A program made the translations under genes and the position numbers. Shown here piece after piece: positions 61,174 to 61,356 of a stretch of 64,000 nt of DNA (the first letter of the stretch is position 1; each line of letters begins with the position of its first letter). The DNA lies in assembly GCF_003334315.1 (NCBI RefSeq), contig NZ_QOWR01000004.1. The stretch is one strand, 5' to 3'. This DNA is from Escherichia coli. Lineage in GTDB: Bacteria; Pseudomonadota; Gammaproteobacteria; Enterobacterales; Enterobacteriaceae. The notes under the pieces are model-generated. The model had not been told where the DNA came from, made no database searches, and saw only the letters and a program-made list of their open reading frames with translations.

Positions 61174-61356
61174 TCATCGATCTTGTATCACTTTTTTGCC
61201 GGAAGTTGTTTGCATTTTATTAGTTGGATAGGGTTTGTGGATTTTTGCTGGCTGACGGGCAAATAAAGTTTGTTTAATGGTTTGCTTATCTGCCAGTTGA
61301 TTAATCACATGGCGGGCTATCTGACCGCCAGCACCAAGAATCAGTACATTTTTCAT
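61174..61356 (-). pseudogene. ymjC: Remnant N-terminal fragment of an NAD(P)-binding (NmrA-like) protein
   Basis: ORF track 60-aa ORF with Rossmann motif ILGAGGQIARH but no downstream domain. Confidence 0.6.

Follow-up and report, generated by a model that had tools for sequence, protein, structure and literature searches.

The 60-codon reading frame ymjC of Escherichia coli is almost certainly a dead, non-functional remnant of a gene for a 212-residue NAD(P)H-binding protein (PF13460, an NmrA-like atypical SDR), and it is as such an ordinary case of gene decay. In the window, by which we mean the whole 64,000-nt stretch of DNA that was analysed, the frame lies within the E. coli tyrR-tpx-ycjG-mpaA-ycjY-pgrR-mppA neighbourhood, where the relevant features are:

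60364..61092, minus strand: mpaA, murein tripeptide amidase, from annotation; 81 nt downstream of the ymjC stop
61174..61356, minus strand: ymjC, b4525 in MG1655, where the whole ORF is annotated
61174..61218, minus strand: read-through tail of ymjC, 14 codons (KMQTTSGKKVIQDR) and TGA, collinear with approximately 1775-1819 of the locus L001
61218/61219: junction of a 665-bp deletion, equal to L001 1820-2484, from pairwise BLAST and direct junction read-out
61219..61356, minus strand: authentic 5' remnant, codons 1-46 (β1, Gly-rich loop GAGGQIA, αA, β2), 100% identical to the full-length protein
61362..61427, minus strand: ymjD, 21 codons, b4673 in MG1655, in-frame remnant of a gene for a 310-aa alpha/beta-hydrolase
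61372/61373: junction of an 867-bp in-frame deletion, equal to 2651-3517 of the locus L002
61427..62347, minus strand: ycjY, the alpha/beta hydrolase gene that survives, placed first in the operon, from the annotation of B2C and MG1655
62485..63383, plus strand: pgrR, LysR-type regulator divergent from ycjY, from the annotation of B2C and MG1655; the regulator gene of the module described below

A reading frame of two parts

In the ORF listing, ymjC starts with ATG and runs for 60 codons and a stop on the minus strand, a strand that the initial annotation had not given, with the translation MKNVLILGAGGQIARHVINQLADKQTIKQTLFARQPAKIHKPYPTNKMQTTSGKKVIQDR; its flanking genes were placed by the annotation of the near-identical strain B2C and of MG1655. 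The initial annotation had reported a 60-aa frame with an NAD(P)-binding N-terminus between mpaA and ycjY, and this frame is indeed there, it is ymjC, and it carries the motif GAGGQIA at residues 8-14, in which G8, A9, G11 and I13 do not vary among 17 orthologues. When taken alone, the 60-aa product gave only weak matches (E 0.002-0.1), which were limited to Rossmann-type enzymes and did not reach past their first ~40 positions. This likeness is not a product of chance, since other E. coli encode at this locus a 212-aa protein with which YmjC agrees in every one of residues 1-46 (100% identity), and the same 138 nt in B2C are labelled 'NAD-dependent dehydratase, incomplete, missing C-terminus' by the RefSeq pipeline. 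Residues 47-60, on the other hand, are encoded by what in intact strains is spacer DNA between the SDR gene and mpaA, 3' of the SDR stop codon, and nothing corresponding to this tail is present in 16 full-length orthologues. The description of all 60 residues as a Rossmann-fold fragment consequently holds for residues 1-46, which come from the enzyme, but not for residues 47-60, which are former spacer.

The full-length gene and the 665-bp deletion

At the position of ymjC, between mpaA and ycjY, strains PK8261 and EH01-18-02 carry a 639-nt gene encoding a 212-aa 'SDR family oxidoreductase' (WP_000800177.1), and O145:H28 likewise has a 639-nt gene between mpaA and ycjY. The 212-aa protein matches the PF13460 NAD(P)H-binding profile over its entire length (1-184 of 184, E 3.4e-54) and the NmrA-like profile PF05368 (E 4e-10), it is identical to PDB 3QVO ('NmrA family protein') at 209 of 212 residues, and no NCBIfam model matched it at E <= 1e-5. 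The earlier proposal of a remnant of an NmrA/SDR-like gene was therefore borne out, and the search for full-length homologues and for the deletion boundaries that had been suggested with it succeeded in both respects; a lack of such homologues had been named as what would speak against a remnant, and they exist at the same locus in PK8261 and EH01-18-02.

The predicted model of the full-length protein (17 orthologues, mean pLDDT 88.8) places β1 at residues 2-7, αA at 12-21, β2 at 27-33 and β3 at 47-51, with 12 further elements following, so YmjC, which ends just before β3, would retain 3 of the 16 secondary-structure elements (β1-αA-β2). Most of the near-invariant residues of the family, those in VYANL, GIYDEVPGKFGEWN, YTILRPAWL and DGDKP.FM, sit in the lost part. 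The complete PF13460 domain, of ~184 positions and with its full parallel β-sheet, is absent from YmjC, in which the match ends at residue 46; YmjC is a fragment of a PF13460 member and not a functional member.

The 665 bp that are lost at 61218/61219 comprise codons 47-212 with the stop codon (501 nt) and 164 nt of the 290-nt spacer between the SDR gene and mpaA. One base of the junction is ambiguous, and the junction shows no direct or flanking repeat and no IS scar. Slippage between repeats was considered as the cause of the loss and rejected because only 1 nt of microhomology is shared exactly; we infer that the segment was lost by illegitimate recombination, after which translation from the original ATG would have entered the former spacer and stopped after 14 codons. 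The marks of a deletion remnant can be observed directly at this locus, namely an intact conspecific orthologue at the same position, a definable junction, sequence that is not homologous beyond the junction, and with it the loss of the domain.

A second deletion and the frequencies of the alleles

In the longest arrangement, that of EH01-18-02, the place of ymjD is occupied by a gene for a 310-aa hydrolase, hydrolase 2, a lost paralogue to which the surviving YcjY is 42% identical. As comparison of the ymjD translation, MKHIQIRNSDMAWHIAANNLG, with hydrolase 2, MKHIQIRNSDMAWHIAAN...NTHLG, revealed, ymjD consists of the first 18 codons of hydrolase 2 fused in frame with the gene's last codons and stop. 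Since the 867-bp deletion is in frame, the ymjD start still overlaps the ycjY stop (TAATG) and the ymjD stop still lies close to the next start, 5 nt before the ymjC ATG, an arrangement in which the gene downstream would remain translationally coupled. A separate loss of 12 nt (ATGAGAAATATT) lies immediately upstream of the SDR ATG. Expression of YmjD has reportedly been described in a small-protein paper, to which we give no weight.

To determine how the alleles are distributed, all counts were made on the same sample of 5426 complete E. coli genomes. Of these, 5418 had a match to an 801-nt query that includes the ORF, with matched lengths of 801, 1466 and 2345 nt. The 40-mer spanning the SDR-deletion junction was found in 2288 genomes (2286 of these with an identity of at least 99%) and the 40-mer spanning the hydrolase-2 junction in 3721 (2288 at 99% identity or more, 1428 at 95-99%); the deleted SDR segment was present in 2943 genomes and the hydrolase-2 segment in 1283. 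These figures, which are counts and not a cross-tabulation, fit a nested history that leads from both genes intact, through the loss of hydrolase 2, to the additional loss of the SDR gene. In the order of events that we infer, the 867-bp in-frame deletion would have come first, turning hydrolase 2 into ymjD, and the 665-bp deletion second, turning the SDR gene into ymjC. The initial annotation had spoken of one old deletion, and this stands in so far as the 665-bp loss is defined and a single junction is found in ~42% of complete E. coli genomes; however, the deletion is not fixed in the species, it is probably the second of two nested deletions, and it took 164 nt of spacer besides the coding sequence.

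Decay of this locus is not confined to the two deletions. In DETEC-P881 (L005 2605..2724), only SDR codons 1-30 are left, joined directly to a hairpin that lies downstream of the SDR gene, which is an independent truncation, and in O145:H28 RM12761 an ISEc20 element is located within hydrolase 2. Independent truncations in other strains thus establish that the locus decays repeatedly. DETEC-P881 also has a deletion that takes parts of ycjY and pgrR.

Within 60364..62500, the window has the hydrolase-2 junction and the 12-nt loss in common with PK8261. Its flanks are nearer to those of EH01-18-02, in which both genes are intact (99.45% versus 98.0%), and most variable sites group the window with EH01-18-02. 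This haplotype mismatch suggests that the deletion allele was moved between lineages by recombination.

A mobile four-gene module

Loci in other taxa were collected by scanning genome contigs with a degenerate pattern for YTILRPAWL, followed by tblastn on the listed matches; YTILRPAWL is common to the whole family, and the matches listed span many phyla, with no other Escherichia species among them. The arrangement of a LysR gene divergent from hydrolase 1, hydrolase 2 and the SDR gene is found in Pseudocitrobacter, at 83-92% amino acid identity, and also in Afipia, Rhizobium, Paracoccus, Microbulbifer, Xylophilus and others. The SDR has full-length orthologues of 210-212 aa, with identities of 60-84%, in the same gene order in alpha-, beta- and gammaproteobacteria, and plasmids carry them too, one being the conjugative IncF plasmid pKGB1a of Klebsiella variicola (L127 2092..5639), where the same four genes have the same lengths. 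An MpaA match (E <= 1e-15) beside the module was seen in 0 of 40 cases among the matches listed with an SDR at least 55% identical.

Because the module is conserved across proteobacterial classes and on a plasmid, the long arrangement is the ancestral one, and pgrR, ycjY, ymjD and ymjC are the remains of one mobile module. In its ancestral state the E. coli locus, between mppA and mpaA, had hydrolase 1 (ycjY), hydrolase 2 and the SDR gene in one operon, with the LysR gene pgrR transcribed divergently from it. As far as can be judged from sequence comparison, the evidence points to horizontal spread of the module.

Hydrolase 1 of E. coli is 84% identical to that of Afipia or Rhizobium, which is unexpectedly high across classes and is part of this evidence. 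The hydrolases score 75-87 bits against UilS-type N-acyl-homoserine lactonases, which is sub-threshold at a cut-off of 400.

A hairpin lost with the SDR gene

The deleted 164 nt of spacer contain a terminator-like hairpin (L001 1964..1940, minus strand), located right 3' of the SDR stop, with an 11-bp stem, a 3-nt loop and a UUUAUU tail (dG -15.3 kcal/mol, z = -3.9; 0 of 200 shuffles fold as well). This raised the possibility, which we judge to be rather improbable though worth stating, that the 665-bp deletion was a cis-regulatory change that, by loss of the hairpin, linked mpaA to the ycjY promoter, which PgrR controls, and so created the operon of K-12. Such a change is compatible with ymjC being a pseudogene, since it bears on what followed from the deletion, and the ORF would then be a by-product of it.

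The stability of the hairpin and its location inside the deleted segment agree with a regulatory change, as does the lack of anything similar left between ycjY and mpaA: no terminator-like site was detected in the window at 61000-61500, and the remaining spacer between ymjC and mpaA has no unusual structure (z = 0.33). Moreover, the K-12 literature (PMC5934670) puts mpaA and ycjY in one operon under PgrR, while elsewhere a PgrR-like gene travels with the hydrolase and SDR genes, with MpaA adjacent in none of the 40 cases counted above among the matches listed. Against this, the U-tract of the hairpin is weak, its tail UUUAUUAAAC having U at 5 of 8 positions, and DETEC-P881, in which the SDR gene was truncated independently, retains the hairpin, so that SDR loss does not require hairpin loss. 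Furthermore, a simple scan of the intact spacer found no recognisable mpaA promoter, and since none was seen, transcription from upstream might run into mpaA in intact strains too. A search of the intact SDR-mpaA region against Rfam gave no match. A promoter-like sequence that spans the 665-bp deletion junction in the window (TCCACA-16-TAAAAT, 61241..61214) was not relied on because one such match is expected by chance (expectation of 1.3 for the region).

Taken part by part, we think it doubtful that the loss of the hairpin raised read-through into mpaA, and similarly unlikely that the deletion removed a hairpin closing an imported module (pgrR divergent from ycjY, hydrolase 2 and the SDR gene) and thereby placed mpaA under the PgrR-controlled ycjY promoter. 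If it did, the role of PgrR in K-12, where it is the textbook 'peptidoglycan recycling regulator', would be a by-product of gene decay, and this role would be limited to the ~42% of E. coli that have the junction. If the loss of a terminator holds, PgrR control of mpaA would vary between E. coli lineages.

The regulator gene itself differs in the window. At ~63248..63254 (plus strand), pgrR has a run of A7, as against A8 in MG1655 and B2C, and the resulting frameshift cuts the protein short at residue 257 of 299. A 201-nt query with the exact A7 sequence gave 100% matches in at least 8 complete genomes, so the run may be a genuine variant that recurs, or else an error of homopolymer sequencing; if it is genuine, the repressor of ycjY-ymjDC-mpaA may be impaired in the source strain. 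In addition, a copy of IS1 is located in the pgrR-mppA spacer at ~63560..64000 of the window, with an InsB-like ORF at 63563..63940 (minus strand). The element is annotated in B2C, and being upstream of mppA, it could affect mppA expression.

Does the YmjC peptide have a function

K-12 is reported to have an operon ycjY-ymjD-ymjC-mpaA, printed 'ycjY-ymfDC-mpaA', that belongs to the PgrR regulon (PMC5934670), and 'ycjY-ymjDC' is listed as an operon (PMC3946193). Since ymjC lies inside a reported operon, it is therefore transcribed, and the word 'orphan' used for it in the initial annotation does not apply. Its start is also suited to translational coupling, with the ymjD stop 5 nt upstream and a GGGA 8 nt upstream, and hence the peptide may be made.

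We therefore considered that YmjC might be a functional small protein that has gained its own role, for instance in tolerance of stress or drugs, and find this very unlikely. Besides the placement of the start, what can be held against a remnant is that the ORF is intact in every sampled genome bearing the deletion, 2288 in all, and that MG1655 annotates a CDS, 'putative uncharacterized protein YmjC'. However, the carriers are near-identical (at least 99%), so the intact ORF is uninformative on purifying selection. Deletion of ymjC caused a 2-fold rise of the trimethoprim MIC, but complementation in trans did not reverse it (PMC8355897), a result that fits a cis or polar effect and not an active peptide. 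A TraDIS fitness signal was obtained for ymjC at one time point, but its authors deem it unreliable for so small a gene (PMC8803141), and a 'ymjC' cluster that is over-represented in lactic-acid-resistant isolates is described as a putative oxidoreductase, with the allele, full-length or remnant, left unspecified (PMC9602453). The main texts of the papers surveyed that mention ymjC or ymjD hold no ribosome-profiling or proteomic evidence of YmjC. A functional peptide is further at odds with a tail that comes from non-coding DNA, with the absence of most of the fold, and with the different truncation, ending in a different tail, in DETEC-P881. With only β1-αA-β2 left, the dinucleotide-binding sheet and the substrate pocket cannot form, and judging from the predicted model, the product would most likely be inert and unstable.

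The reverse polarity, with the short form ancestral and the 212-aa gene a later insertion or fusion, has in its favour that both alleles are common and nothing else, and it can be practically dismissed, being refuted by the distribution of the 210-212 aa orthologues and by the module, whose gene order is conserved across classes and on plasmids, while the end of the short form is made of what is intergenic sequence in the long form and a 46-residue Rossmann piece is not viable as an ancestral domain.

The reading of ymjC as a dead remnant matters little as a finding in itself, the gene being already known, annotated in MG1655 and flagged as partial by the RefSeq pipeline. What is added here are the two nested deletions with defined junctions and with their frequencies in 5426 genomes, and the recognition of pgrR, ycjY, ymjD and ymjC as what is left of a single mobile module of four genes that occurs across Proteobacteria. 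Caution is also advised with phenotypes and pan-genome associations ascribed to 'ymjC', which may reflect an intact oxidoreductase elsewhere or polar effects on mpaA in K-12.

Comparison with known systems

Distant relatives to which we compared the full-length protein are the BLVRB/flavin reductase-type and the ChuY/ShuY-type small NAD(P)H-dependent reductases, of ~205-215 residues, which share a PF13460-like fold; with E values of 1e-5 to 1e-6 against the full-length protein, their similarity is remote only. Much closer is PDB 3QVO/WP_000800177.1 (PF13460, atypical SDR), whose N-terminus, including the Gly-rich dinucleotide-binding motif, is shared with YmjC 1-46, whereas YmjC lacks residues 47-212, that is, everything from β3 onwards and every conserved C-terminal motif. 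Finally, ymjC (b4525) and ymjD (b4673) of MG1655 are the same genes in the same position between mpaA and ycjY, with the same 183-nt ymjC ORF as the window. MG1655 differs from the window in being without both the IS1 in the pgrR-mppA spacer and the 1-nt loss in pgrR, but nothing substantial differs within ymjC itself, and over the 801-nt stretch around it, the window and K-12-derived strains are 99.9% identical.
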